The notes: generated by a model from the letters alone, not told the origin. 64,000 nt of DNA from Candidatus Parcubacteria bacterium (GCA_041158505.1 JBEBBG010000009.1:5157-69156), one strand, 5' to 3'. Counted from the first letter of the stretch, positions 6,018 through 48,505 are shown. Made by a program: numbers and translations.

Positions 6018-6989
6018 ATGCGACGAACAGTGGCAGATACTATTGGAAAAACAGTAAAGTGGCTGATTCCAGCTGCAATTGTGTTTGCGCTTGTCTATGC
6101 TGTAAGCGAGAGTCGCGAACCAGCACTTGTTGTCACTGAGCAGGTTGCAAGTGAGGATGTGGTACTCGAAGATCTCTATGAGCGTGGATACTTTGCAAAC
6201 GCGCTGTCATATAACATTGTTCGAATCGCCGTGACGCTCGGTTTTGATATGGAACCAGGAGCGTATTCACTCACTAAGGGTATGGGGGCTTTTTCATTTC
6301 TCTCTGCGGTATCTGCGCCCGAGTACGTGTACATCACTGTACAGGAAGGGTTGCGGCGAGAGCAGGTTGCAAAGATTGTTGGAGACAAGCTTGATTGGTC
6401 GCAAGCAGAACGTGAGCGTTTCATGAATGATTTGCCGCTGTGCGCATTTACTGGTGGTGAAGGATACTTTTTCCCAGGAGTGTACTTAGTACACAAGAAT
6501 GAGACACCTGAGATGGTTCGGGAACGAATGTTGCAACGCCTTAAGGAATCATTCGAGGAACTTGCAGGTGAACAGACGACGCGCGTTCTTAATTTGCATC
6601 AAATTCTTACGATTGCCTCACTGATTCAGCGAGAAGCAGCAGGCAAAGGTGACATGCGTTTAATTTCTGGAGTAATTTGGAACCGCCTGTTTCAAGAAAT
6701 GCCACTGCAAATTGATGCTACGTTGCAGTACGTAAAAGCAGAAGACGCCGAGAAGTGGTGGCCGCAAGTGCGTTCTGATGATAAGTATCTCGAATCTCCG
6801 TACAATACGTATCAAAATAAAGGCTTACCACCAGGACCGATTGCTAACCCAGGCCTAGCTGCTATCGAGGCCGCACTTAATCCACTCGATACAAAGTGTC
6901 TTTTTTACATTCATGATAATTCACGCAACATCCACTGTGCCTCAACCTACGAAGCGCACAAACGAAATATTAGCTACTATCTAAAGTAG
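6018..6989 (+). CDS. mltG: endolytic murein transglycosylase MltG/YceG family (paralog 1)
   Basis: N-terminal TM. YceG motifs LASLIQREA, MPLQIDATLQY, SPYNTYQNKGLPPGPIANPG, FYIHDNSRNIHCASTYEAHKRN. Confidence 0.8.
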   Translation: MRRTVADTIGKTVKWLIPAAIVFALVYAVSESREPALVVTEQVASEDVVLEDLYERGYFANALSYNIVRIAVTLGFDMEPGAYSLTKGMGAFSFLSAVSAPEYVYITVQEGLRREQVAKIVGDKLDWSQAERERFMNDLPLCAFTGGEGYFFPGVYLVHKNETPEMVRERMLQRLKESFEELAGEQTTRVLNLHQILTIASLIQREAAGKGDMRLISGVIWNRLFQEMPLQIDATLQYVKAEDAEKWWPQVRSDDKYLESPYNTYQNKGLPPGPIANPGLAAIEAALNPLDTKCLFYIHDNSRNIHCASTYEAHKRNISYYLK

Positions 6990-7004: not shown

Positions 7005-7325
7005 ATGAAACTCGGTATTTTCTTGGGGAGTGTTGTGGCGATTGTTGCCGTTATTTTTGCATTTCAAAATCAAAACACGATTACCGTAGAATTTTTCTCA
7101 TTCGTATTTACAGGGAGTGCGGCACTACTCATCCTCTCTGCGCTGCTTGTTGGTTTTTTGATCGGCACCTTACTTTTTGTTCCAAGCAACCTTTCACTCC
7201 TTTGGAAAGCGCGACAGCTTGCTCGAGAAAACGATTTATTAAAGCGAAAAGCGCATGATGAAACTATTCAGTACGAAGCTCCTGGGCTTGGTGAAGAGGG
7301 TGAAGGACAAATTGATATTGCATAG
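7005..7325 (+). CDS. small membrane protein, LapA/DUF1049-like
   Basis: Two TM helices followed by a coiled-coil tail (LWKARQLARENDLLKRK), as in the LapA/YciS family. Confidence 0.5.
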   Translation: MKLGIFLGSVVAIVAVIFAFQNQNTITVEFFSFVFTGSAALLILSALLVGFLIGTLLFVPSNLSLLWKARQLARENDLLKRKAHDETIQYEAPGLGEEGEGQIDIA

Positions 7326-7332
7326 GTCGCAT

Positions 7333-7575
7333 ATGGGAAAAGACAAAAAGAAACATACAGGACAATCGCAAGCCTCTCTTGAGCAGGTGTTGCGACGAAT
7401 TGATGGTCGATTCAACACGTGGTACCGAGTCTTTTGGTATGGCATGCTACAAGGAGCTGGTGCAGTGCTCGGTGCCGCACTATTTGTACTCATCGTTGCA
7501 CTTATTCTTGAAGCACTTGGGTTAACTGAATTGTCGGAAGCGTTTCGTCACTACGGGAGATACGGCAATCTTTAG
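7333..7575 (+). CDS. small membrane protein, hypothetical
   Basis: First ATG downstream of the previous stop in an ORF that is open from 7255. Basic N-terminus and one TM helix (AGAVLGAALFVLIVALIL). Confidence 0.4.
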   Translation: MGKDKKKHTGQSQASLEQVLRRIDGRFNTWYRVFWYGMLQGAGAVLGAALFVLIVALILEALGLTELSEAFRHYGRYGNL

Positions 7576-7629
7576 TACGTTATCAACAGCTGTACGGGAG
7601 CACTCTTTTTCTCTGTTACTATTAGCGGT

Positions 7630-9006
7630 ATGAGATTTGTTTTTGTTGCAACACTCCTTCTTTCTTTCCTTGCGGCACCATTTGTTGGTAGTGCGCAGAG
7701 TGATGATATTCCCGCGGCTGAGGAGCAGACACAATTCTACGTAAGTGATGTTGTGTTTACGCGCCCATCCTACGCTGCTAGCGATGTCGTTGCGGGTACG
7801 TTCACCTTTCATAATCTAAGTGATGAAGTTGTTACTAATGCGCAATACCGCATTGAGTTAGTCACGTTACTTAGTGATGGAGCGGGCGGAGTGTACCCAT
7901 CAGATGCCCTTGATGCTACCGAGGCAGTTCGAATGCAGGCTTCAGAACCTGGCAAGACGCTCTCGGTACCGTTTACCTACACGATGCCACAGCACGTGCC
8001 TGAGGGTGAGCTCGGCATACTTGTTCAAACGTATATTGGTGAATTGCTAACTCCTGTAGCTCTTGAGTACGTCCCGCTTACTGTTTCTGGAGATAGGGTT
8101 ACATATCTGCCACGTGCAGCTTCGTTGATTGTGAATGATGAAGAGTCTTACGAAACGCTCGCGGGACCAACCGTTGATCAACGAGAACAGGTTGTCCTTG
8201 AGCTGTATGTTGAAAATCCATCAGATGCGCTTGTAACGATCCGCCCAACACTTTCAGTCGTTGAAGGAAAGACATCAACCGGTGCTCAGATCCTTACACA
8301 ACCACAAGCCGACGTTGCTATTGCGCCAGGTGCCGCAAAGACAATCCCGATCACCATTCCATTACTGCAGCTTAACCCCGCAGTTTATACACTTATTGTT
8401 GATGCTGTTGATGTAAAGACTGGTGTGCCAGTGTTTGCTCCTATTGAAGCGCGGTTAGTTGTTGCTGGACTAGAGCCAAGTATTGAGCGTGTAAGCTACA
8501 GTACGCTTGATTTAACGAAACCACTCGCTTCTTTTGACGTGACTGTTTCATACCTTGATGCGCCAATTAATTTTCGTGTTGCTGATGATGGAAAACCAAA
8601 AGACATCCGCGTAGCACAAGCACTGATGCCATCAAGTACTATTGAAGATTGGATACGCGCAACTGGCGCCGCGGCAGTGGTACGCATTGAAGACGCGGAT
8701 CGACAAACCGTACTTAGAGAGCAGCGGCTTGCTTTTACAGACAGCAATGAGGCAACCGCACGTTTTGGGGTGTGGGCTGGAACAGAGCGCGTGCGTGTCT
8801 TGGTAACACTTGAACAGTATGGCAAAGTTATCGATACCTACACTGAGGATCTAACACTCACTGTTCCGCCGTACCCGTTGTGGCAGCGCTTGTGGTACGA
8901 AAATCCACTACTTGTCCTAGGTGTAGGTATTGGTGTTTTGTGTATCGTGGTGCTTGCCGTTGGGGTACAGGTACTACGTCGCCGACGTGTACAAACAATG
9001 ATGTAA
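7630..9006 (+). CDS. large secreted, C-terminally anchored surface protein (cassette copy 1, protein A)
   Basis: Signal peptide MRFVFVATLLLSFLAAPFVGSAQS. C-terminal TM LLVLGVGIGVLCIVVLAVGV followed by RRRR. Paralogous to 10652-12064. Confidence 0.6.
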   Translation: MRFVFVATLLLSFLAAPFVGSAQSDDIPAAEEQTQFYVSDVVFTRPSYAASDVVAGTFTFHNLSDEVVTNAQYRIELVTLLSDGAGGVYPSDALDATEAVRMQASEPGKTLSVPFTYTMPQHVPEGELGILVQTYIGELLTPVALEYVPLTVSGDRVTYLPRAASLIVNDEESYETLAGPTVDQREQVVLELYVENPSDALVTIRPTLSVVEGKTSTGAQILTQPQADVAIAPGAAKTIPITIPLLQLNPAVYTLIVDAVDVKTGVPVFAPIEARLVVAGLEPSIERVSYSTLDLTKPLASFDVTVSYLDAPINFRVADDGKPKDIRVAQALMPSSTIEDWIRATGAAAVVRIEDADRQTVLREQRLAFTDSNEATARFGVWAGTERVRVLVTLEQYGKVIDTYTEDLTLTVPPYPLWQRLWYENPLLVLGVGIGVLCIVVLAVGVQVLRRRRVQTMM

Positions 9007-9012
9007 TTACGT

Positions 9013-10302
9013 ATGCCATTCCTTTCAAACAAAAAACAGATACTGAAAACAGCACGACATCTTTTCCTTATGGGCGCGCTCGTTGTTGGTCTTTTTGGTT
9101 TGTTCACAGCAGAGGTTGCTCATGCTGGGTTCCCATACTTCGCAACAAAGGTAACAGTAAATACTCCGAAGCCGCCAGAAGTTCGTACATACAAGCCAGG
9201 AGAGGCAATGCAATTTAGTGGTCAGTTTAGTTGGTCGTACTGTGGTAACGCGGGCAACTTCCGTGTCTATGGTCGAACAACTCGACCTGTTGCTGTTTCA
9301 GAGAGTCATGCAGGATTTTCTCCGTGGACCGAAATCACATCAACCACCGGAAGAAAAACGTACACGAGTGCATTCACTGCTCCAACAAAACCTGGAGTTT
9401 ACAAATTTAAGTATGAAATTGAATTTGGTCAGCCGTGTGTCGGTATTCGTGGTGCCTCATGTAACGGATTTACGCTCATGTCTAAGTACGAGGCGCTGCC
9501 AAAGCAGGGGGCTCGTGGCATAAAACTTGGAGTTCCTCCAAGTTATACCTATGTGCGTAGTGGTGTTGTTACATTTGAGGTAAAAGATGATGTAAAAAAA
9601 CCAGTATGTCCTGCGGATACCATCGAGGTACTTCGTGATGGTAAAACAGTTTGTGTCCCACAGGTACTCTCGCTAACTTGTTCTGTATCAGCAAATCGGA
9701 TTGAACCTGGCGAATCAGTAACATTTGAAGCTGTAACAAACGAGCAGGCGACCTTTACGTGGTACGAAGGAGGTGTTGCAAGCGGCACTATTCTTGGTGG
9801 TCCAGAGACTGGTACAAAGAGTACGCTAACTAGAACCTTTAGTCGTGTAGGTCAGTATCAGGTAACGGCGTATGCACAGAATGCTCGTGGGGCTGGAGCA
9901 TGTACGCGTGGTGTAACTGTCGGTGATGTTCCGGAAGAGGAAGAAGAGGAGGAGGTGCGAGATGAGTTTAATAACCTTGTACAAGAAGACGGCACGCTCC
10001 TCACCGCGACTGGCAAGCGTATCGGTTTTGATCCAAAGGCGGGGCCAGCAGCTATTATGTTTGAACTGGACCCAACGCTAACTAACACGACGTGTGGAGC
10101 GACATGGTCTGCGCAAAACGTCGCACAGTGCTACATGGTTGCATCAGGAAACAGAAGCCGTGCAGCAGCAATTGACGCATCAGGTGAAGCGCAAGTTGTT
10201 CCTGCAACGTACCGTGTTGAGTGTTTGGCACTTCGTGATGGCGCCATTGTGTCATCAGAGATTCGTATTTGTCGTCAAAACTTCGATACGCGAGAGCGGT
10301 AG
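9013..10302 (+). CDS. secreted/anchored protein with acidic E-run and Cys-containing C-terminal domain (cassette copy 1, protein B)
   Basis: N-terminal signal/anchor LFLMGALVVGLFGLFTAEVAHA. An EEEEEEE run. Conserved block TFTWYEGG...TLTRTFSRVGQYQVTAYAQNARGAGACTRGVTVG. Paralogous to 12070-13329. Confidence 0.6.
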   Translation: MPFLSNKKQILKTARHLFLMGALVVGLFGLFTAEVAHAGFPYFATKVTVNTPKPPEVRTYKPGEAMQFSGQFSWSYCGNAGNFRVYGRTTRPVAVSESHAGFSPWTEITSTTGRKTYTSAFTAPTKPGVYKFKYEIEFGQPCVGIRGASCNGFTLMSKYEALPKQGARGIKLGVPPSYTYVRSGVVTFEVKDDVKKPVCPADTIEVLRDGKTVCVPQVLSLTCSVSANRIEPGESVTFEAVTNEQATFTWYEGGVASGTILGGPETGTKSTLTRTFSRVGQYQVTAYAQNARGAGACTRGVTVGDVPEEEEEEEVRDEFNNLVQEDGTLLTATGKRIGFDPKAGPAAIMFELDPTLTNTTCGATWSAQNVAQCYMVASGNRSRAAAIDASGEAQVVPATYRVECLALRDGAIVSSEIRICRQNFDTRER

Positions 10303-10343
10303 GGCTTTACCCTCAAGGTGTTTGTTGGTACCATGGTCGCACT

Positions 10344-10571
10344 ATGAATTTTTTGATGAAAGCAATGTTGAAGCGCCAACTAAAAGCGCTTCCTGCAGAT
10401 CAGCAGGATATGATTATTCGGGCAATTGAGGAAAACCCAAAGCTATTTGAAACAATTGCAAAGGAGATTCAAGAAAAGGTGAAGAAAGGTGTTGATAAGC
10501 AGACGGCGGCAATGCAAGTGATGATGGCGCACCAGAATGAGCTTCGCACAGCAATGCAACCAAAAAAGTAG
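10344..10571 (+). CDS. small hypothetical protein (75 aa), helical and Lys/Gln-rich
   Basis: Plausible start MNFLMKAML within an ORF open from 10269. No known motif. Confidence 0.35.
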   Translation: MNFLMKAMLKRQLKALPADQQDMIIRAIEENPKLFETIAKEIQEKVKKGVDKQTAAMQVMMAHQNELRTAMQPKK

Positions 10572-10590
10572 CACATACATTTAGGTAGTT

Positions 10591-10630
10591 ATCAACACGC
10601 GCCGGGCACTTGTGCCCGGCGCGTGTTGAT
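10591..10630 (+). terminator. long near-perfect palindromic hairpin (ATCAACACGCGCCGGGCAC..GTGCCCGGCGCGTGTTGAT)
   Basis: A stem of about 16-19 bp read directly in the sequence between the small gene and cassette copy 2. It shares its core with the hairpin at 19487. Confidence 0.45.
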
Positions 10631-10651
10631 TTCGACGTATACTATACAGTA

Positions 10652-12064
10652 ATGCATACGCGGGGTTTACGGTACATTGGTATTTTTGTTGCACTAAGTG
10701 TGCTTTGCGTTCCCGCAATACTCCTCGCACAACAAAATGGTACTCCTACGTCCGAACCAGTAACTACTGACAACCAACTGTACGTTGATGAGATTCAAAT
10801 AGAGCCAGGGACATTTGCTCCTGGAGATGCAGTTCGCGGCACCTTTATGCTCTACAATGTTAGCGAAAGTATACTCTCTGGAGTTACATACAGAGTAGAG
10901 CTCGTTAAGCTTGCTGTTGTCGATGAAATTCTGGTTATTTCTGAGCCGCTCGATGCTGGACCACTCAGTAGTAAGGCTACTGTGCCAGCCGGAGGAATTT
11001 CAGTTCCTTTTGTCTATACGTTACCAAGGCTTCTTCCAAAAGACGGCGGTGTTGGGCTTCTTATCCAATCATACGAACAGGGTGGTGCACCTTCGGGATA
11101 TGAGGTAGTTGAGCTTTCTGTTGATGCAAGTAGTGGTGCCGCTTACCTGCCATTCCAAGCAGTTGTTTCTGTTAATGGTACCGAAACCTACGAACCACTT
11201 GAAGGCCCAACAATTCAACCAACTGAAGAAGCTGTGCTTGAGGTTCGACTAGTAAACACGCTCGATACGGCAACCACCCTGACGCCAAAAATTACCATTG
11301 TTCGGGGCCCAACAAGTGGTGGAGATGTTGCGTATGAAAAAGTATTAGATTTTCTAACACTACCAGCAGGGGAAACTGTACTTGAACAAGTGCCGCTACC
11401 GCTCGATCAGGAGCCAGGAGTGTATACAGTGCTTCTTTCTTTTGCTGATCCTACAGATGCTGCGGCAGTTGCTCCAATTGAAGCTCGTTACATTATTGCA
11501 GGTCTGAAACCAAAGATTGAACAGGTTCGTTACGATACGACAAACATTGCCGCAGCGAATGATACGCTCACAGTACACGTTAGTTTTATGGATGTACCGC
11601 TCAACATTCGCGTATCAGCAGATGGGGTGTTTCAAGACCCGCGAGCTGAGCGATTCTTTACCAGTACGTCATCTGATGCTGGGTACGAACAGTCTCTGCA
11701 GCAGCTGCTTCCCGAGGGAATGTCGGCACGAGTAACACTCGCCGACCCAAATACAAGCGAAATTCTTGCACAGGAGAATGTTGGTTTTACAGGAGGAACT
11801 GCTGAAGCAACCGTTTCATTCCCTGACCTCACCGGTCTAGATGGAGTATACGTAGAAGTTGTGTTGCTGCAGCGTGGGGAAACTGTCGACTCTTTTGGAG
11901 AAACGCTCATCCTTACAACTCGAGACGATCGCGCTGGCATTTTACTCTTCTGGGATGAGCATCCATTTATTTCAATGACGGGTGTCTTGGTGCTCCTTGT
12001 GGGCGTCTGGTTTTGGTGGGTGCTTGCACGACGACAACAAGCAACAGGTATACTAAAAAAGTAA
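10652..12064 (+). CDS. large secreted, C-terminally anchored surface protein (cassette copy 2, protein A)
   Basis: Signal peptide from MHTRGLRYIGIFVALSVLCVPAILLAQQ. The annotated 10610 start lies inside the upstream hairpin. C-terminal TM GVLVLLVGVWFWWVLARRQQ. Collinear similarity to 7630-9006, for example IEARLVVAGLEPSIERVSY versus IEARYIIAGLKPKIEQVRY. Confidence 0.6.
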   Translation: MHTRGLRYIGIFVALSVLCVPAILLAQQNGTPTSEPVTTDNQLYVDEIQIEPGTFAPGDAVRGTFMLYNVSESILSGVTYRVELVKLAVVDEILVISEPLDAGPLSSKATVPAGGISVPFVYTLPRLLPKDGGVGLLIQSYEQGGAPSGYEVVELSVDASSGAAYLPFQAVVSVNGTETYEPLEGPTIQPTEEAVLEVRLVNTLDTATTLTPKITIVRGPTSGGDVAYEKVLDFLTLPAGETVLEQVPLPLDQEPGVYTVLLSFADPTDAAAVAPIEARYIIAGLKPKIEQVRYDTTNIAAANDTLTVHVSFMDVPLNIRVSADGVFQDPRAERFFTSTSSDAGYEQSLQQLLPEGMSARVTLADPNTSEILAQENVGFTGGTAEATVSFPDLTGLDGVYVEVVLLQRGETVDSFGETLILTTRDDRAGILLFWDEHPFISMTGVLVLLVGVWFWWVLARRQQATGILKK

Positions 12065-12069
12065 TTCGT

Positions 12070-13329
12070 ATGCAGAACATGCAAAAACAGCAAAAAAGAT
12101 TTTGGTACACAACAGTGTCTGCATTTGTTGCAGCACTTGTACTTGTTGGTGCGGCGTACATGCAGGTTGGTGAACAGCGTGTTGCTGACGCGGGTAAGCC
12201 ATACTTTAAAAATGCGATTACTGTTACCAATCCAAAGCCACCACAGGTTCGTGAGTATGCCCCAGGTTCAGACATTCCACTTCGTCTCGATTTCGATTGG
12301 ATTTACTGTGCAAATGAGGGCGGTGGCGCTGTCTATGGACGCACATCAAACATTGTTCCAGCTGATAAGCCACTTCCTGCTCCAAAGGGTGCATGGCGAG
12401 CGGGCGTTGCTGGTTGGCCAGGCACAGCGGGTCCTGCTGCGAAGGGTAAAGAGCAAGCGTATGCACCACGCAAAGGTGTGTACAGTGAGAACCTTCGTGC
12501 CCCAATGAAACCTGGTAAGTATCAACTCGCGTATGAAATTGAACTACGAACTCCAGAGGGTAATTTGTCTCGACAAGGAAGAGTTGTCTTTGAAGTACGG
12601 GACAAAGAGCGAAATCCAGGAGCAAACTGTCCAGCAAATCAAATTACCATTCGACAAAATGGAGGACTTGTTTGCGTGCCGAATACCGTTGATGTTGATT
12701 GCGATGTCTCGTCGACACAAGTTGATGTAGGGGAATCAGTAACCTTTAGTGCATCAACTGCAAAAACAGCAACCTTTACATGGTATGAAGGACCACATGC
12801 TGGTGGTACTGTTCTGGCTGGCCCAAAAACCGGCACACAGAGCACGCTAACTCGAACCTTTAGTCGTGCAGGTCAGTATCAGGTAACAGTTCTTGCAAAA
12901 AATGCACAAGGCTCATACGGTGCATGTACACGCGGCGTGCGCGTTGGTTCATTAGAAGATGAAATTGAAGAAGAGGAAGTAACTGATGAATTCGGTAACA
13001 TCTTTAATAGCGTAGACGGTACCATTATGACACCTGATGGACAGATCCTAACCATTGATCCAAGTGCACCTCCTGCGTCAGTTACACTCACCTTCGATAG
13101 AGCGCTTACAAACACTACCTGTGCTGCAACGTGGCAAGCTCAGAATGTTCTCCGTTGTTACATGGTTCGGGGTAATGAGCGTACAAATGCACCGGTGATT
13201 GGTGCGTCAGGTACTGAGCAGGTTGTTCCTGCGACGTATCGAGTTGATTGTCTTGCTCGACGTGATGGTAAAATCGTCTCTTCTGAAACTCGTATCTGTA
13301 GTAATAACCCAGATGCTCGTGAGCAGTAA
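12070..13329 (+). CDS. secreted/anchored protein (cassette copy 2, protein B)
   Basis: Start MQNMQKQQKRFWYTTVSAFVAALVLVGAAY is 6 nt after the previous stop. Blocks GKPYFKNAITVTNPKPPQVREYAPGS, TFTWYEGPHAGGTVLAGPKTGTQSTLTRTFSRAGQYQVT and an EEEE run align with 9013-10302. Confidence 0.6.
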   Translation: MQNMQKQQKRFWYTTVSAFVAALVLVGAAYMQVGEQRVADAGKPYFKNAITVTNPKPPQVREYAPGSDIPLRLDFDWIYCANEGGGAVYGRTSNIVPADKPLPAPKGAWRAGVAGWPGTAGPAAKGKEQAYAPRKGVYSENLRAPMKPGKYQLAYEIELRTPEGNLSRQGRVVFEVRDKERNPGANCPANQITIRQNGGLVCVPNTVDVDCDVSSTQVDVGESVTFSASTAKTATFTWYEGPHAGGTVLAGPKTGTQSTLTRTFSRAGQYQVTVLAKNAQGSYGACTRGVRVGSLEDEIEEEEVTDEFGNIFNSVDGTIMTPDGQILTIDPSAPPASVTLTFDRALTNTTCAATWQAQNVLRCYMVRGNERTNAPVIGASGTEQVVPATYRVDCLARRDGKIVSSETRICSNNPDAREQ

Positions 13330-15467: not shown

Positions 15468-18308
15468 ATGAAGCAGTACAATCACAGCGAAATTGAAAAG
15501 AAGTGGCAGCAAGAGTGGGCTTCGGCACGCGCTTTTGAAACGCCGGATACTGTGGCAGGAAAAGAAAACAGCTACATTCTTTTTGAGTTTCCATATCCAT
15601 CGGGAAACTTGCACGTTGGACATTGGTACGCTTTTGCTCTTACCGACATCTACGCACGATTTGAACGTCTCCGTGGCAAGAACGTGCTCTTTCCTGTCGG
15701 ATTCGATGCGTTTGGATTACCTGCCGAGAATGCGGCAATCAAGCACGGTCTTAACCCACGAACGTGGACCTACCAAAACATGGACAGTATGCGCGCACAG
15801 ATGCGTGCTATGGGGTGCACGTTTGATTGGTCTCGTGAAGTGGTTACCTGCGCACCTGAGTATTACAAGTGGACGCAATCACTTTTCTTAACGTTGTTTA
15901 ACGCGGGATTGGTGCAGAAGAAAACAACAACCGTAAACTGGGACCCTGTCGATAAAACGGTGCTTGCAAATGAACAGGTGCTTGCTGATGGCACTGCAGA
16001 ACGCTCTGGTGCGCTTGTAGAGCAAAAAGAAATGGATCAGTGGACTGTTTCAATTACAAAGTACGCCGATCGTTTGATTGATGACCTTGAGCCGCTTGAT
16101 TGGCCAGAAGCGATCAAAGATTCACAGCGTAACTGGATTGGACGGAGTGAAGGAGCAAAGCTCACCTTTACCCTCAGTGGTTCGTATGGTTCGCTCCAGG
16201 TGTTTACCACGCGCCCTGATACGCTCTACGGTGTGACGTACCTTGTCGTCGCGCCTGAGCATGAACTGGTGAGTGTTGCACTTCCTGCACTTGCTAACAA
16301 AGATGCAGTTGAAGCATACATCACAGCTGCAAAACGAAAAACAGAACGTGATCGTTTGATTGGCGAGAAAGAAAAAACAGGAGTACTCCTTGATGGGGTT
16401 ACCGCAACACATCCGCTTACCGGTGAATCATTACCAATCTACACTGCCGACTACGTACTTAAAGGGTATGGTACTGGAGCTATTATGGCGGTACCGGCAC
16501 ATGATGAACGAGACGCCGCGTTTGCGGAGGCATTCGGCTTGCCCGTAAAAAAGGTGATTGCGCCACGTCTTGTTGATGATCGAAATCCTCACGTGGAAGG
16601 TAAAGAGGTAGTCACCCGTAACGCAGTGATTGCTGTCGTCCGAAATCCAGAAAACGACACGTATTTGACATTACATTGGCCAGCGCAGCAGTGGCACACC
16701 TTTGTTATCGGTGGTGTTGAAGGAGAAGAAGATTCAGTTGCTGCGGCTCTGCGTGAAATCACTGAGGAAACGGGGTACACGGATGTACGATTTGTGCGTA
16801 AGTTGGTCGGCCCGACTCGTTCAGAGTTTTTTGCAGCACATAAGGATGTTAATCGAATCGGATACTTTGATATCCACCTCTTTGAACTTGGGAGCCTCGA
16901 ACAAAAAGTTGTCGCAGAGGAAGAAGTTAAAAAGCAAACGTATGAGTGGGTACCACGGAGTGCATTGACTACCGCCATGACCCATACAGAAATGCCGTTC
17001 ATTCTTGAGTCCCTAGATACAGGTAAGGAATTCTTTTGGAGTGGTGAGGGTATCCTCGTAAACTCAGGCGAACATACCGGCCTTTCATCTGCAGAGGCAA
17101 AGCAGCGCATTACTGAAGCGGCAGGCGGGGAACTTGTTTCTACGTACAAGCTTCGAGATTGGATTGTCTCACGACAACGCTACTGGGGCTGTCCAATTCC
17201 TATTATCAACTGTCCACATTGTGGGCCGGTCGCTGTTCCTGAAGATCAGTTACCAGTGGTACTTCCTGAAATCGATGACTACATGCCACGAGATGATGGT
17301 CGCTCACCACTTGCAAAAGCAACTGAATGGATGCAGGTGAGCTGTCCGTCGTGTGGAGGTAATGCAGAACGTGAGACGGATACCTTGGATACCTTCGTGG
17401 ACTCTTCGTGGTACTACTTACGGTATGCAGACGCAAAAAATGAGCAAGTCTTTGCTGATCGTGAAAAACTCAACGCGTGGATGCCAGTAAACTTCTACTC
17501 AGGAGGAGCTGAGCACACAACCATGCATCTCCTCTACGCACGATTCTTCAATAAGGCACTCTTTGATCTAGGGCTTGTTCCATCTGCAGAACCATTCACC
17601 AAACGCCTTAATCGCGGCCTCATCCTCGGTACTGACGGTAACAAGATGAGCAAATCGAAGGGAAATGTGATTGATCCAGATACTGAGGTTGCGCGATTTG
17701 GAGCAGACACCGTGCGAAGCTACCTTGCGTTCATCGGTCCGTACAATGAGCCAGGGAACTATCCGTGGGATCCAAACGGTATCGTGGGTGTGCGACGTTT
17801 CCTTGAGCGTGCAGCGGCCATTCCAGAGCACGTAGTGGTAGAGACGCCAGCGCACGTGCGTCAGCTTGTGCATCAATCAATAAAAAAAGTTGCAGAAGAT
17901 GCAGCGCGCTTCAAATTCAATACAGCAATCGCGCAGCTTATGGTGCTCACCAGTGCTATCTGTAAAGATGGTATTGGTAAAGACGATGCGCAGCTCGTTG
18001 CTGTTATCCTCTCGCCCTTCGCGCCGCACCTCGCAGAAGAGCTCTGGCAGCAGCTCGGAGGTATCTCACTTGTCGCGCATGAACCATGGCCACAGTATGA
18101 TGCATCGCTCCTTGAACAGGCGACTGTAATCATTGCGGTGCAGGTAAATGGAAAAGTTCGTGGGCAGGTAGAGGCCTCAAAAGACGCGACAGAGGCAGAT
18201 GTGTTGCATGCTGCATTGGGGCAAGAAAGCATTCAAAAGTGGGTTGGTGATACTGATCCAAAAAAGGTCATTTACGTCCCAGGGAAGCTCCTTTCCATCG
18301 TTGTGTAG
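15468..18308 (+). CDS. leuS: leucyl-tRNA synthetase carrying an inserted Nudix hydrolase domain
   Basis: HIGH region PYPSGNLHVGHWYAFALTDIYARFERLRG. CP1 motifs TTRPDT and GTGAIMAVPAHDERD. RLRDW-type KLRDWIVSRQRYWGCPIPI. KMSKS as NKMSKSKGNVIDP. C-terminal anticodon-binding region VIIAVQVNGKVRG. A perfect Nudix box GGVEGEEDSVAAALREITEETGY lies at nt 16710-16778, inside an extra ~145-aa block. Confidence 0.9.
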   Translation: MKQYNHSEIEKKWQQEWASARAFETPDTVAGKENSYILFEFPYPSGNLHVGHWYAFALTDIYARFERLRGKNVLFPVGFDAFGLPAENAAIKHGLNPRTWTYQNMDSMRAQMRAMGCTFDWSREVVTCAPEYYKWTQSLFLTLFNAGLVQKKTTTVNWDPVDKTVLANEQVLADGTAERSGALVEQKEMDQWTVSITKYADRLIDDLEPLDWPEAIKDSQRNWIGRSEGAKLTFTLSGSYGSLQVFTTRPDTLYGVTYLVVAPEHELVSVALPALANKDAVEAYITAAKRKTERDRLIGEKEKTGVLLDGVTATHPLTGESLPIYTADYVLKGYGTGAIMAVPAHDERDAAFAEAFGLPVKKVIAPRLVDDRNPHVEGKEVVTRNAVIAVVRNPENDTYLTLHWPAQQWHTFVIGGVEGEEDSVAAALREITEETGYTDVRFVRKLVGPTRSEFFAAHKDVNRIGYFDIHLFELGSLEQKVVAEEEVKKQTYEWVPRSALTTAMTHTEMPFILESLDTGKEFFWSGEGILVNSGEHTGLSSAEAKQRITEAAGGELVSTYKLRDWIVSRQRYWGCPIPIINCPHCGPVAVPEDQLPVVLPEIDDYMPRDDGRSPLAKATEWMQVSCPSCGGNAERETDTLDTFVDSSWYYLRYADAKNEQVFADREKLNAWMPVNFYSGGAEHTTMHLLYARFFNKALFDLGLVPSAEPFTKRLNRGLILGTDGNKMSKSKGNVIDPDTEVARFGADTVRSYLAFIGPYNEPGNYPWDPNGIVGVRRFLERAAAIPEHVVVETPAHVRQLVHQSIKKVAEDAARFKFNTAIAQLMVLTSAICKDGIGKDDAQLVAVILSPFAPHLAEELWQQLGGISLVAHEPWPQYDASLLEQATVIIAVQVNGKVRGQVEASKDATEADVLHAALGQESIQKWVGDTDPKKVIYVPGKLLSIVV

Positions 18309-20809: not shown

Positions 20810-21799
20810 ATGGAACGACTACGCGCATATTTTTCTGTCATTCGTACACACCTGGCCCGCACGCATGGGTGGTTGCTTGTACTCATTATTGCACTACTGC
20901 TTTCTATCGTGTGGGTGTGGGCAACAACAGCTCCAAGCGCGCTTGTTGTGCCAGTTGCAATCGACGTGCCGAAAGGAGCAACGGTGAAAGAGATTACGCA
21001 GCAGCTCAAGGACGCAGGCCTCATTCGTTCACGGGCCGTAACAAATACCATCATTATTGTGAGCGGGCGTGATACAAAGATTGTTTCAGGAACATACCTG
21101 TTTGAGCGCCGGCCGAGCACGTTTGAAGTTGTGCGTCGTGTGACACGAGGAGATTTTGGTGTCGAAACAAAAGAGGTGCGCATTCCAGAAGGTGCTACAA
21201 CCAAGCAAATTGGTGAATTGTTTGAACAAGAGTTTGCGTATTTTGATAAAGATGCCTTTTACCAGCTCACTGAAGGTAAAGAGGGGTACTTGTTCCCTGA
21301 CACGTATCAATTTTTAGAAACGGTTAAGGCGTATGAAGTTGTTGCTGCTCTAGAAGAAAATTTTGCGAAGCAGACAGCTGCATTACTTCCACTAATGAAA
21401 GCATCAGAAAGAACACTGGAAGATGTCGTTATTATGGCCTCAATTATTGAGCGCGAAGCAACTGCAGATTCTCGGCAGGCAGTTGGTAATATTTTATGGA
21501 AACGAATTGAAATTGAAATGCCACTGCAAGTTGACGCTACGTTCGTGTACTCAGTGGGGCGCGGCACATTTGATTTAACAAAGGCAGATTTAGCAAATGA
21601 GGATAATCCTTACAATACGTATACACACAAAGGTTTGCCCCCAACAGCAATTAGTAATCCTGGATTTGAATCATTGAAGGCGGCCGCCACAAAAGAGGAT
21701 ACTGACTATCTTTTTTTCCTAACTGGACACGATGGTGAGATGTACTACGCAGAAACCTTTGAAGGGCATAAGCGGAATCGTGCGCGCTACCTAAACTAG
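20810..21799 (+). CDS. endolytic murein transglycosylase MltG/YceG family (paralog 2)
   Basis: N-terminal TM. MPLQVDATFVYSVGRG, NPYNTYTHKGLPPTAISNPG, LFFLTGHDGEMYYAETFEGHKRN. Same family as 6018-6989. Confidence 0.75.
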   Translation: MERLRAYFSVIRTHLARTHGWLLVLIIALLLSIVWVWATTAPSALVVPVAIDVPKGATVKEITQQLKDAGLIRSRAVTNTIIIVSGRDTKIVSGTYLFERRPSTFEVVRRVTRGDFGVETKEVRIPEGATTKQIGELFEQEFAYFDKDAFYQLTEGKEGYLFPDTYQFLETVKAYEVVAALEENFAKQTAALLPLMKASERTLEDVVIMASIIEREATADSRQAVGNILWKRIEIEMPLQVDATFVYSVGRGTFDLTKADLANEDNPYNTYTHKGLPPTAISNPGFESLKAAATKEDTDYLFFLTGHDGEMYYAETFEGHKRNRARYLN

Positions 21800-44928: not shown

Positions 44929-46005
44929 ATGGAAATCCTCGATATCATCAAAGTCATTGTCCCAACCACGCTCTCGTTCTTTGTTGGTATCGCGATTACA
45001 CCAACCATCACCAACTTTCTCTACAAACATGAAATGTGGAAGAAAAAAGCAGGGAAGGTGGCAGTGACCGGTGAGGCAACACCAATCTACGACAAGCTCT
45101 ACGAGAAGCGCGACGTCGGCACGCCACGTATGGGTGGCACGGTGATTTGGCTCTCGGTGTTTATCGTTGGCGCACTCATCTGGACACTCTCTCGCTTTAC
45201 CGACACTGGCCTCTTCGACAAAATCGAGTTCGTCAGCCGTAACCAAACCTGGATTCCATTCTGGGCGCTGCTCATTGGCGCGCTCGTTGGACTGCTCGAT
45301 GACTGGCTCGAGATCAAAGGCTCACGCAACCACGTTGCAGGAGGGCTGTCGCTCAAGCTCCGGCTCTGCATCGTGGCGATGATTGGTATTTTTGTAGGAC
45401 TCTGGTTCTTTACCAAGCTCGACGTAGTGGCAATCGGCGTACCGTTTCTGGGCATGATTACGGTTGGGTGGCTGATTGTGCCGTTTTACGTGGTTATTAT
45501 GCTTGCAGTCTATGCAGGTGGAGTGATTGATGGCCTCGACGGCCTCTCTGGTGGCGTATTTGCGTCTATTTTTGCCGCGTACGGCATCTACGCCTTTTCA
45601 CTCGGACAGCTCGACCTAGCGGCATTTTGCGGCTTGCTCGTTGGTAGTATTTTGGCCTTCCTTTGGTTCAACATTCCACCAGCACGCTTCTACATGTCTG
45701 AGACCGGCTCAATGGCGCTCACCATCACCGTTTCAATTCTAGCCTTTATGACCGACAGCTTGGCAGGCGGCATGGGTATCGGCATCTTGCCAATCGTGGC
45801 AATTCTCCTCTTTGCAACGGCTGCATCGAGCTTGCTCCAAGTCCTCTCAAAGAAGCTCCGGGGAGGGAAGAAGATTTTCCTCGCGGCACCGCTCCACCAC
45901 CACTTCGAAGCAATCGGCTGGTCCCAGTACAAGATTGTCATGCGCTACTGGGTCCTCGCAGTCATCTTTGCCGCACTGGGGCTGTTGGTGGCATTTGTGG
46001 GGTAG
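44929..46005 (+). CDS. mraY: phospho-N-acetylmuramoyl-pentapeptide transferase MraY
   Basis: Ten TM helices. GTPRMGG, LLDDWLEIKG (DDxxD), VIDGLDGLSGG, and the C-terminal HHHFE motif. Confidence 0.85.
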   Translation: MEILDIIKVIVPTTLSFFVGIAITPTITNFLYKHEMWKKKAGKVAVTGEATPIYDKLYEKRDVGTPRMGGTVIWLSVFIVGALIWTLSRFTDTGLFDKIEFVSRNQTWIPFWALLIGALVGLLDDWLEIKGSRNHVAGGLSLKLRLCIVAMIGIFVGLWFFTKLDVVAIGVPFLGMITVGWLIVPFYVVIMLAVYAGGVIDGLDGLSGGVFASIFAAYGIYAFSLGQLDLAAFCGLLVGSILAFLWFNIPPARFYMSETGSMALTITVSILAFMTDSLAGGMGIGILPIVAILLFATAASSLLQVLSKKLRGGKKIFLAAPLHHHFEAIGWSQYKIVMRYWVLAVIFAALGLLVAFVG

Positions 46006-46016
46006 AAACAAAGTAA

Positions 46017-46568
46017 ATGACTCAATACAAAATAAATAGCGGCGCGCAAAATAAAAATACAATCTCTATAGCAGAGTTGAAAGAACAAATTAAACAAGAA
46101 GCTTTTCGTCATTTAAAACACATTAAAGACAGTAGGAGTCATGCAGCTTTTAATCTAGCTTTCTTAAAGGCGACTATTTACATCGAAGAAATTCTAAAAG
46201 ATGTAAATTTTCATTTTGATAAGAATTTAAAAGACAAACCTCTAGGTAATCAAATTAACGCAATTAAAAAATATATTAATCTTGAACAAGAAACGGAGGA
46301 AGATCAAAAAATATACGAATCTGCTTTTGAAAAATTAGATTTTATTAATGAGATTCGGAAAAAGATTGCACATGATTTAGAATATAACTTAATTAATGAT
46401 AAAAATGCCTTAAATTCTATGCGGATAACAATCTTAGACTCAGAAGAAGAAAAAGCCAAAAAAGTTGCCTTATACTTTAAAGGTATTATTTTTCCTTTTC
46501 TTCACTTTAAATTAGGAATTAAGAACTTTGATAATTTCTTAATTCCCCTAGAACATGAATCCAATTAA
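46017..46568 (+). CDS. hypothetical protein; first gene of an AT-rich accessory operon
   Basis: 183 aa, Lys/Asn/Ile-rich, no motif. Starts 11 nt after the mraY stop. Overlaps the next gene by 14 nt. Confidence 0.45.
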   Translation: MTQYKINSGAQNKNTISIAELKEQIKQEAFRHLKHIKDSRSHAAFNLAFLKATIYIEEILKDVNFHFDKNLKDKPLGNQINAIKKYINLEQETEEDQKIYESAFEKLDFINEIRKKIAHDLEYNLINDKNALNSMRITILDSEEEKAKKVALYFKGIIFPFLHFKLGIKNFDNFLIPLEHESN

Positions 46569-46902
46569 ACGCCTCACAAAAGAAATAATTGCGTTTCGAA
46601 ACCGACGGAAGTGGAAACAATTCCATAATCCAAAAGACGTCGCACTTTCTTTAGTACTTGAGGCGACAGAGGTTATGGAACATTTTCAATGGAAAAGTCC
46701 TGAGGAAATGAAAACATACGTTAAGAAGAATAAAACAGCAATTAGCGAAGAACTTGCTGATGTTTTGTACTGGGTACTGCTGCTATCACACGATCTCAAT
46801 ATTGATATCGAGAAAGCACTAGACAATAAAATAAAAATCAATAACGAAAAATATCCTGTATCAAAAGCAAAGGGGAGTCATGCAAAGTACACAGAACTAT
46901 AG
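46555..46902 (+). CDS. MazG-like nucleoside triphosphate pyrophosphohydrolase (all-alpha NTP-PPase)
   Basis: LVLEATEVMEHF...EELADVLYWVLLLSHDLNIDIEKALDNKIKINNEKYP matches the MazG/DCTPP1-type EExxE...EELGDxL metal-binding pattern. 115 aa. Confidence 0.65.
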   Translation: MNPIKRLTKEIIAFRNRRKWKQFHNPKDVALSLVLEATEVMEHFQWKSPEEMKTYVKKNKTAISEELADVLYWVLLLSHDLNIDIEKALDNKIKINNEKYPVSKAKGSHAKYTEL

Positions 46903-48466
46903 TATGTCTGAGATTAAAACATTTAAATTTGATAGCAAAAATTTCGATGAAATTCGGGCGTACAAATTTGGTACAAATTGGCCCGTGGTTTACCTCATTG
47001 AGGATGGAAAAGAAATCTATGTAGGAGAGACCGTAAATGCATACCAGCGGAGTAAGCAGCACTTAGAAAACGCCGCTCGTGCGCGTCTTAAACGCATTCA
47101 CATTATCGGTGACGAAGAGTACAACAAATCAGCAACTCTCGATACAGAATCGTGGCTTATTCAGTACATGTCTGCTGAAGAAAAGTTTGTACTTCAAAAT
47201 GGAAACCGGGGCCTCAAAAATCACAGCTACTTTGATCGTGAAAAATATAGAGCAAAATTCGAACGAACATGGCAAAAGTTAAAAGAGATGGCCATCGTCC
47301 AAAAAGATTTAGTGCAGATTCGCAACAGCGACATTTTTAAATATTCTCCATATAAAGCACTGACGCAAGATCAAATGCTTGTTGTGCGAAAAATTGTAAA
47401 GCACCTTATTTTACAAAAAGAGCACACGTTTATCATTAATGGAAAGCCAGGAACAGGGAAAACAATCCTTGCTGTCTATCTCATAAAATACCTAAAAGAA
47501 CGAGAGGAAACAAAGCATTTAAATGTTGCCCTTGTGGTACCCATGACCTCACTTCGAAAAACAATTCAGAAGGTTTTCCGAAAAGTTTCTGGGCTCAGTT
47601 CTAGTATGGTAATTGGTCCAAACGACGTCACCAGCAAACAGTACGATTTACTTATTGTTGATGAGGCGCACCGATTGCGCAGGCGTGTGAATATCACAAA
47701 TTTTCGTTCGTTTGATACAACTAATAAAAAACTTGGTTTTACAAATGAAGGTACTGAGCTTGATTGGGTTTTGCGCTCGGCAAAAAATCACATTTTATTT
47801 TACGACAAAAACCAGAGCGTTCGCCCCTCAGACATACCCCATGCCCGTTTCGACGCATTAGAAGCAACTCACTTTGAACTAGAGAGTCAGTTGCGAGTAG
47901 AAGGCGGGGAAGAGTATGTAACTTTCATTGATAATCTTTTTGACACAGCTGTACAAAACAAAATAGCTATCAAAAACTATGATTTTAAGTTGTATACGAA
48001 CATTGTTCAGATGGTTGAGGATATAAAGCAAAAAGATAAGGAGTTTGGTTTGTCTCGAATGGTTGCCGGTTATGCGTGGAACTGGAACACAAAACGCGGC
48101 GGAGAATATGACATTGATATCGACGGACTAAAACTTACGTGGAATAGTAGCGCAAGCGACTGGGTAAATTCACCGAATGCACTGAATGAAGTTGGTTGTA
48201 TTCACACAGTGCAAGGATACGATCTTAACTATACCGGCGTAATTATTGGACCAGAAATTTTTTACAATAAAGAAATTAGAAAGATTTGCGTAAGTCCGCA
48301 AAAATATAAGGACATCAACGGCAAGCGCTCAGTCTCTGATCCCGAAGAATTAACTCGATACGTCATCAATATTTATAAAACATTAATGACTCGGGGTATT
48401 AAAGGGACGTACGTATACATTGTGGACCGAGATTTACGAGAATATATAGAATCTCAGCTTGTCTAG
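46880..48466 (+). CDS. GIY-YIG nuclease domain fused to a DUF2075-type P-loop (SF1 helicase-like) ATPase
   Basis: GIY-YIG: VVYLIEDGKEIYVGETVNAYQRSKQHLEN. Walker A INGKPGTGKTILAVYL. Walker B/DEAH LLIVDEAHRL. C-terminal GYAWNWNTK...IHTVQGYDLNYTGVIIG, typical of DUF2075. Overlaps the upstream gene by 23 nt. Confidence 0.7.
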   Translation: MQSTQNYSMSEIKTFKFDSKNFDEIRAYKFGTNWPVVYLIEDGKEIYVGETVNAYQRSKQHLENAARARLKRIHIIGDEEYNKSATLDTESWLIQYMSAEEKFVLQNGNRGLKNHSYFDREKYRAKFERTWQKLKEMAIVQKDLVQIRNSDIFKYSPYKALTQDQMLVVRKIVKHLILQKEHTFIINGKPGTGKTILAVYLIKYLKEREETKHLNVALVVPMTSLRKTIQKVFRKVSGLSSSMVIGPNDVTSKQYDLLIVDEAHRLRRRVNITNFRSFDTTNKKLGFTNEGTELDWVLRSAKNHILFYDKNQSVRPSDIPHARFDALEATHFELESQLRVEGGEEYVTFIDNLFDTAVQNKIAIKNYDFKLYTNIVQMVEDIKQKDKEFGLSRMVAGYAWNWNTKRGGEYDIDIDGLKLTWNSSASDWVNSPNALNEVGCIHTVQGYDLNYTGVIIGPEIFYNKEIRKICVSPQKYKDINGKRSVSDPEELTRYVINIYKTLMTRGIKGTYVYIVDRDLREYIESQLV

Positions 48467-48505
48467 TACTGTTTTTAATTTTAGTTCTACAAAAATATTT
48501 ATTTA

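Follow-up and report, generated by a model that had tools for sequence, protein, structure and literature searches.

The question raised by this locus is what kind of protein is encoded by a pair of adjacent genes that occurs twice in succession in an uncultured bacterium, and how the two pairs are related. The locus lies in a 64,000-nucleotide (nt) stretch of DNA from Candidatus Parcubacteria bacterium (GCA_041158505.1 JBEBBG010000009.1:5157-69156), hereafter the window, and consists of the genes A1 and B1 followed by their paralogues A2 and B2. The analysis revealed that A and B together are the split form of an unannotated protein family whose members are usually a single protein, with two ectodomains joined by a membrane hairpin.

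A preliminary description made from the sequence alone had proposed that a two-gene unit of surface proteins was duplicated in tandem, and the positions and plus orientation that it gave for the four genes proved correct (Table 1), as did the collinear similarity of their products. BLASTP aligned A1 with A2 at 34% identity (468 columns, E=5e-60) and B1 with B2 at 44% identity (447 columns, E=6e-111). As both alignments are collinear from end to end, the similarity is neither low-complexity nor compositional. Between A1 and A2, identity is even (33-38% in each of three domains); between B1 and B2 it is uneven, with 65% in the PKD domain, 62% in the C-terminal domain and 43% in the N-domain, the last with 53 gap columns. 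No similarity between A and B was detected by BLASTP or by profile-profile comparison, and the latter null result ruled out B as an internal repeat of A. No additional copy of A or B is present in the window. The stop codon of A and the start codon of B are separated by 5-6 nt in both copies (TAAttacgtATG and TAAttcgtATG), and the adjacency of A and B is preserved in eight related loci. The two junctions (9004-9015, TAATTACGTATG; 12062-12072, TAATTCGTATG) are closer to each other than to the orthologues' junctions elsewhere, over a stretch too short to separate chance from local conversion. A1 is identical to RL150_335 and B2 to RL150_339, which are hypothetical proteins of a Candidatus Parcubacteria metagenome-assembled genome.

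The nature of the pair became evident from its relatives. A word-indexed search returned only four relatives of A and eight of B. An exhaustive HMMER search of 1.84 billion cluster representatives with an A-family profile, which A1 and A2 match along their full length, returned 601 proteins at E<=1e-3, including 333 at E<=1e-10. Family members were defined by an N-terminal signal peptide together with a match to the profile over at least D1-D2 of the A-module. The prevailing layout among relatives is a single chain composed of an A-module, a first transmembrane (TM) helix (TM1), a short loop rich in lysine and arginine, a second helix (TM2) and a large ectodomain. Such an arrangement, with a signal peptide, the A-module, two adjacent TM helices at about residues 390-500 and an ectodomain of more than 150 residues, was found in 95 of the 148 matches examined; the fused proteins have a total length of 800-1700 amino acids (aa). 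Stand-alone A with a single C-terminal TM helix accounts for only about 25 of the same 148 matches. The full order of B (N-domain B_N, PKD domain and C-terminal domain B_C) follows the hairpin in eight representatives (P0018-22, P0025, P0029 and P0030), and B_N stands right behind the hairpin, with a different continuation, in 14 further representatives. A hidden Markov model of B_N matches 31 of 160 proteins, and the B_N motifs (PKPP..Y.PG, W.YC.N and APxxPGxY) are still visible in the consensus of 43 distant members. The fusions are real genes and no artefact of assembly, since P0029, one of them, was recovered on 16 contigs of several samples.

The inter-helix loop of the fused forms corresponds to the RRRR tail of A together with the basic N-terminus of B. 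The position of this loop settles the topology: the N-terminus of A lies outside the cell and its C-terminus inside, and B is oriented the other way round. By the same correspondence, the cytoplasmic loop is the exact point at which the two-gene cassette was split or had never been joined; the TM hairpin is thus present in the window, but divided between the end of A and the start of B. The preliminary description had regarded A and B as paired neighbours, which understates their relationship because they form two halves of one polypeptide in most relatives. In neighbour-joining (NJ) trees based on Kimura distances with 200 bootstraps, the split forms of this lineage lie within the fused forms as one clade, supported at 80% for A and at 100% for B.

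A second feature of the fused relatives concerns the end of TM2. Cleavage motifs were counted in a 16-residue window at this position in 97 fused proteins, the expectation being derived from the ectodomains of the same proteins. The motif A-x-A occurs in 42 of the 97 against 6.4 expected, and [AVT]-x-A in 74 of the 97 against 22.4 expected. The sequence (A/V/T)-x-A is the signature of signal peptidase I substrates (the -3/-1 rule). TM2 therefore looks like an internal signal peptide, and we infer that the fused precursors would be cut after it. Given such a cut, fused and split genes would yield the same two mature parts.

The part that follows the hairpin is variable. In other members of the family, B is replaced by LamG or by NHL/SGL beta-propeller modules, and a Pfam scan of 43 further distant members gave mostly no match, a few proteins matching PKD, fn3, CARDB or DUF11. 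The interchangeable C-terminal modules (PKD, LamG, beta-propeller and fn3) suggest a display platform for binding domains. All named relatives are Parcubacteria, Paceibacterota or Staskawiczbacteria, and the family is probably restricted to Parcubacteria/Paceibacterota; a scan of GTDB genomes with the B alignment revealed one distant locus only (L009).

The preliminary description had further assigned to A an N-terminal signal and a C-terminal TM anchor with a basic tail, and both were found. A1 consists of a predicted signal peptide (aa 1-22, ...GSA|Q), three beta-sandwich domains (about aa 35-152, 153-280 and 281-412) and a TM helix (aa ~426-449), which in A proteins is followed by a short basic tail (RRRR in A1). 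The ectodomain contains no Cys. The AlphaFold2 (AF2) model of A1 is all-beta, with a predicted local distance difference test (pLDDT) value of 82. Neither A1 nor A2 has a match in Pfam or NCBIfam, and the PDB profile search for A was also empty. Foldseek matches of A are macroglobulin-domain (MG-like) arrays, FnIII, RbmA and arrestin/VPS26, with TM-scores <=0.31, and these matches of a predicted model are regarded as generic strings of beta-sandwiches. A1 and A2 showed no match to CARDB (PF07705, gathering cut-off 22.7 bits) even at E<=1. Among relatives, P0029 reaches 17.8 bits with CARDB, below the cut-off, and one of 43 distant relatives matches it at 7e-8; DUF11 is matched by one distant family member. 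A sortase or -CTERM sorting signal for A was ruled out: the LPXTG-type motif LP.T[GAS] is absent from A1, A2, B1 and B2, the best NCBIfam match to an exosortase/archaeosortase '-CTERM' model is CoaP_CTERM at 11.5 bits against a cut-off of 35, and fused relatives continue past the TM helix.

B begins with a basic n-region and a hydrophobic core of 15 residues that ends in a cleavage-type site, AHA|G in B1 or ADA|G in B2, consistent with the N-terminal signal or anchor foreseen in the preliminary description. The form (A/V)-x-A-G is present in nine of nine B proteins, directly before the conserved PYF/PKPP start of B_N. In B1, this segment (aa 1-38) is followed by B_N (39-195), the PKD domain (about 219-304) and B_C (341-429). 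B_N carries the motifs PKPPxVRxYxPG, WxYCxN and APxKPGxY, a Cys-bounded loop lies between B_N and PKD, and B_C is a beta domain with four Cys. The acidic run and the conserved Cys noted earlier were confirmed in both B proteins, Cys being invariant at nine positions among nine B proteins. The PKD domain (PF00801) scored 36.8 bits in B1 (aa 221-303) and 32.7 bits in B2 (aa 213-283), both above the Pfam gathering cut-off of 23.5 bits, and the sole PDB sequence match of B was the PKD domain of SorCS2. The earlier statement that neither protein belongs to a recognisable family thus holds for A but not for B. PKD accounts for only ~85 of the 420 residues of B, and B_N and B_C have no match in Pfam, NCBIfam or PDB sequences. 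Both A and B products carry sequence features of exposure at the outer membrane face, in agreement with the surface location first proposed.

The Cys of the WxYCxN motif (Cys77 in B1, 9241-9243; Cys80 in B2, 12307-12309) hardly varies in the wider family. The number of Cys in B2 is odd (nine), and this residue has no obvious intramolecular partner there; the region is poorly modelled by AF2. The Cys may be left as a free thiol or take part in an intermolecular disulfide or another cross-link.

Table 1. Positions of the cassettes and of other features in the window
Feature	Position	Strand	Remarks
A1	7630-9006	+	membrane-anchored 'stalk' half; predicted signal peptide, three beta-sandwich domains, TM helix, RRRR tail
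B1	9013-10302	+	signal/anchor segment, B_N, Cys loop, PKD, E-rich linker, Cys-rich B_C
A2	10652-12064	+	A1 paralogue; domain order as in A1
B2	12070-13329	+	B1 paralogue; cleavage-type site ADA|G
S75, small conserved gene, 75 aa, cytoplasmic-type	10344-10571	+	landmark between the cassettes, outside the repeat
Hairpin, 18-bp perfect stem, 4-nt loop	10591-10630	+	folding free energy -40.6 kcal/mol, z = -7.4 against shuffles
GTTATCAACA element, copy 1, candidate operator/promoter element	7579-7588	+	upstream of cassette 1
GTTATCAACA element, copy 2	10588-10597	+	upstream of cassette 2; overlaps left arm of hairpin
YceG/MltG-family gene	6018-6989		
LapA-domain open reading frame (ORF)	7005-7325		
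ORF following the LapA-domain ORF	7255-7575		weak DUF5665-like match
LeuRS (leucyl-tRNA synthetase)	15468-18308		946 aa; NUDIX insert (PF00293, 41.8 bits, aa 383-500; ~16614-16967) after the editing domain
Second YceG/MltG-family gene	20810-21799		
Region of low GC content	46000-48500		GC 0.353 against about 0.47 elsewhere
ORF	46880-48466		528 aa; Schlafen-group-3/DUF2075-type helicase with weak GIY-YIG N-terminus

Regarding the origin of the two copies, the sequences around the cassettes are informative. The exact 10-mer GTTATCAACA, an element of the GTATCAACA type, occurs only twice in the window, each time upstream of an A gene, and four related loci (L001, L002, L004 and L012) retain it ahead of A. 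It is followed by a TACTAT box resembling a -10 element, ~10 nt before the ATG. The presence of the 10-mer upstream of both A genes indicates that the duplicated unit carried its own regulatory region. The small gene and the hairpin that were described between the copies are both present, and the hairpin is a probable terminator of the upstream unit. S75 is 81-95% identical among relatives, regardless of the cassette carried. It gave no match in Pfam, NCBIfam or a structure search, and its product is probably helical and not a membrane protein. S75 as an obligate partner of the cassette was ruled out by its absence near distant family members.

The copy numbers in relatives were compared on metagenome contigs. 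L001 carries only a type-1 cassette, upstream of S75, and L004, L005 and L006 carry only a type-2 cassette, downstream of S75. From SRR27778295, the type-1 contig L002 ends 2 nt past S75 and the type-2 contig L007 begins 24 nt before A; from sample 3300047554, L012 stops within the hairpin's left arm, and L013 begins in the right one. Contigs of two independent metagenome assemblies thus break at or beside the 18-bp palindrome between S75 and A2. The palindrome appears to fragment short-read assemblies and to hide the tandem arrangement in databases. If it breaks assemblies in this way, both cassettes are probably present in three of the genomes; two lineages have one type only. In the NJ trees, a type-1 clade that also contains orthologues of other genomes is recovered for A and for B at 100% bootstrap support, which places the duplication before several of the sampled genomes separated; the type-2 sequences are deep and poorly resolved. 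At the DNA level, the similarity that survives between the cassettes is confined to stretches of 137-147 nt at 70-77% identity, and the longest exact word common to both is 18 nt, marking the duplication as old and free of recent gene conversion. By identity of YchF and DUF5671, the outgroup genome is L004. The simplest history is an ancestral order S75-A-B, a tandem copy of the unit placed upstream of S75 and later loss of the downstream copy in L001; the alternative is an older duplication followed by loss in L004.

The cassettes have evolved much faster than the genes around them. Between the window and L002, identity is 56% for A1 and 64% for B1, compared with 89% for YceG and 95% for S75; between the window and L007, it is 37% for A2 and 55% for B2, compared with 96% for YchF and 93% for the sigma factor. 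In these genome pairs, the number of non-synonymous substitutions per site (dN) reaches 0.33-0.68 in A and B but stays at 0.025-0.08 in YchF, sigma, YceG and S75, which puts the non-synonymous rate of A and B at 5-25 times that of the neighbours. Relative to synonymous substitutions (dS), dN/dS is about 0.07-0.2 for A and B, a rough figure since dS is saturated; against the closest relative it is ~0.07 for B1, 0.11 for A2 and 0.02 for S75. No window of 60 codons exceeds a dN/dS of 0.34. These values point to both copies being functional, constrained by purifying selection and fast-evolving. A fast rate is typical of exposed surface proteins and is no proof of positive selection. The earlier proposal that the system is undergoing diversification is therefore borne out as far as rate is concerned, but not as recent diversification, given an old duplication, purifying selection and no recent tracts of gene conversion.

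Taken together, these features suggest, with moderate confidence, that an anchored stalk A cooperates with an exported head B at the cell surface in binding or recognition, and that two isoforms of this pair exist in the lineage. A would be exported via its N-terminal signal peptide and held in the membrane by its C-terminal helix, with the N-terminus outside and the short basic tail inside, and would display three Cys-free beta-sandwich domains. B would be exported via its own basic and hydrophobic N-terminal segment ending in the (A/V)-x-A|G site of signal peptidase I type, placing its disulfide-rich N-domain, PKD domain, acidic linker and C-domain outside the cell. Whichever gene layout is used, the outcome would then be identical: a stalk A, anchored in the membrane, that carries an exported head B or works together with it. 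The head would probably bind or recognise an external ligand, for example a polysaccharide or the surface of a host cell. The unit, with its GTTATCAACA element, was duplicated in tandem around a fixed S75 in an ancestor of the lineage, and the copies have become two isoforms, each kept by selection. A broader version, considered here only as a tentative proposal, is a display system throughout Paceibacterota in which the TM hairpin would be cut by signal peptidase I, the heads would be non-covalently held and interchangeable and would set the choice of host, and the present genome would have two specificities.

Several points weigh against this interpretation of a stalk and a head. The cleavage at the A-x-A site, the physical association of A with B and the binding function are all deduced from sequence features, and B may instead keep its hydrophobic segment (15-22 residues) as an uncleaved anchor. 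The fold matches of A and B are generic, with TM-scores of 0.15-0.31 and a root-mean-square deviation (rmsd) of >12 Å, and hence say nothing specific on the ligand; the AF2 model of B is all-beta but poor in B_N, where pLDDT is <50 for several stretches. dS is saturated in every comparison (1.2 to >3), including that with the closest relative, so that dN/dS is only rough evidence of constraint and positive selection at the level of sites is neither excluded nor shown. Whether fission or fusion took place is judged from how common the fused forms are and from an NJ tree of weak resolution, and the continuity of L002 with L007 and of L012 with L013 is deduced from matching contig ends.

Among the other explanations, a two-component S-layer or envelope scaffold is the most serious, albeit unlikely: A would be a membrane stalk and B a lattice-forming outer subunit, the cassettes encoding two isoforms of the lattice. 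Such a model is known from Sulfolobales, where a two-gene S-layer operon encodes SlaB, a TM-anchored stalk, and SlaA, an exported outer subunit rich in Ig-like domains. By description, A-B resembles this system in having an anchored stalk plus an exported outer subunit in a two-gene operon. An anchor with a C-terminal TM helix beside an exported partner rich in beta-sandwiches, a conserved chromosomal position among envelope-related genes (YceG/MltG, the LapA-domain protein and DUF5671) and fast evolution typical of exposed envelope proteins would all suit it. However, no sequence relationship to SlaA/SlaB is known, A lacks a coiled-coil stalk, and A and B are much smaller. The exchange of B for LamG, NHL/SGL beta-propellers or fn3 in distant members also fits a display platform better than a lattice, and L001 and L004 manage with one cassette type each. 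No SLH or S-layer match was found in Pfam for the A and B proteins of the window. Of the adhesin or S-layer-like role suggested in the preliminary description, the surface, adhesin-like part is the most reasonable reading, whereas an S-layer is possible but not favoured. Rather improbable is the independence of the two proteins, in which B would be a freely secreted soluble PKD protein, for example for binding or scavenging of polymers, and A an unrelated anchored protein, their linkage reflecting co-transcription. The signal-peptidase-type site of B and the lack of mutual similarity would be expected in that case, but A is fused to the full B architecture in at least eight representatives and the A-module to B_N in many more, and the adjacency of A and B and the congruence of their trees persist through the duplication. 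B resembles known PKD surface proteins (PF00801) in having a PKD domain flanked by beta-sandwich modules and an exported topology; unlike in those proteins, B_N, B_C and the whole of A have no family match and no enzymatic domain is attached.

There is even less to recommend antigenic or phase variation, in which the cassettes would be alleles exchanged or switched by recombination under positive selection, with the hairpin as an inverted-repeat switch. A2-type orthologues share 37% identity between close genomes in which YchF is 96% identical, much the same as the 36% of paralogues within one genome, and the inverted repeat between the cassettes contains the shared cis-element, both in line with this model. 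The absence of conversion tracts, the lack of a recombinase or invertase in the neighbourhood, the low dN/dS and the completeness of both cassettes, each with its own upstream element, make it quite improbable. The top Foldseek matches of both models (macroglobulin-domain arrays of C5, C3, CD109, A2M and ECAM) raise the idea of a protease trap or defence protein resembling alpha-2-macroglobulin, a family recognised by the thioester motif CGEQ and a full MG1-MG8 array. This is extremely unlikely and effectively refuted, because no thioester motif C[GA]EQ, no bait region and no Cys in the A ectodomain were found. The scores given above indicate generic sandwich repeats, and the proteins have 420-470 aa against >1200 aa for that family. 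A shares a string of three beta-sandwich domains with CARDB, DUF11 and macroglobulin Ig-fold arrays, but A1 and A2 reach none of these models, contain no thioester and have a plain TM anchor. Paired adhesin operons are known in Mycoplasma, a group of wall-less, genome-reduced bacteria, as the P97/P102 paralogue pairs and P1 with the cleaved P40/P90 precursor. These likewise comprise paralogous two-gene units in a host-dependent bacterium with a small genome, with a partner arising from precursor cleavage in some species. They are not homologous, and the cleavage proposed here would be performed by signal peptidase at an internal TM helix instead of by surface proteases. Viral polyproteins of the flavivirus type contain internal signal sequences that are cleaved by signal peptidase, and the fused relatives show the same succession of ectodomain, TM helix, basic loop, hydrophobic segment, A-x-A and ectodomain. 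Unlike them, the present family is bacterial and chromosomal, its cleavage is proposed from motif enrichment, and the gene in the window is already split at the loop.

In the neighbourhood of the cassettes, the gene order is YceG/MltG, LapA-domain protein, small membrane protein, A1-B1, S75, A2-B2, YchF, DUF5671, LeuRS and sigma-70, and it is conserved in related metagenome contigs. Two YceG/MltG-family genes lie within 15 kb, both conserved in related loci. The LapA-domain ORF and the ORF that follows it overlap by 71 nt as listed (Table 1). As the latter is only 78-85 aa long in relatives, its true start is probably further downstream. LeuRS has 808 aa in L004 and 793 aa in L007, and no NUDIX match was obtained in either. 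The helicase gene in the low-GC region was possibly acquired horizontally and may be defence-like.

Parcubacteria/Paceibacterota are among the most abundant uncultured bacteria and are thought to live attached to other cells. To our knowledge, almost nothing is known about their surface molecules. Many families enriched in the candidate phyla radiation (CPR) are unannotated membrane or extracellular proteins (PMC6744442), and CPR predators have large surface proteins containing PKD domains (PMC8080830). Ig-fold surface proteins in paralogous operons are already known; the TM-hairpin architecture, the helix resembling an internal signal peptide, the splitting of the gene at the loop and the apparent confinement to one phylum are new. 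The locus gives access to a family that comprises at least 600 sequence clusters and for which no annotation in Pfam, NCBIfam or PDB and no description in the literature was found. Its split and duplicated form is a natural 'Rosetta stone', marking the functional boundary and providing two small expressible partners of ~45 kDa each. If the heads do not mediate attachment, these would be ordinary fast-evolving Ig-fold surface proteins. If the proposal is true, fast-evolving heads would decide the host cell of an episymbiotic Parcubacterium, the duplicated cassette would represent two host-recognition specificities, and the family would offer a handle on the host specificity of CPR bacteria.

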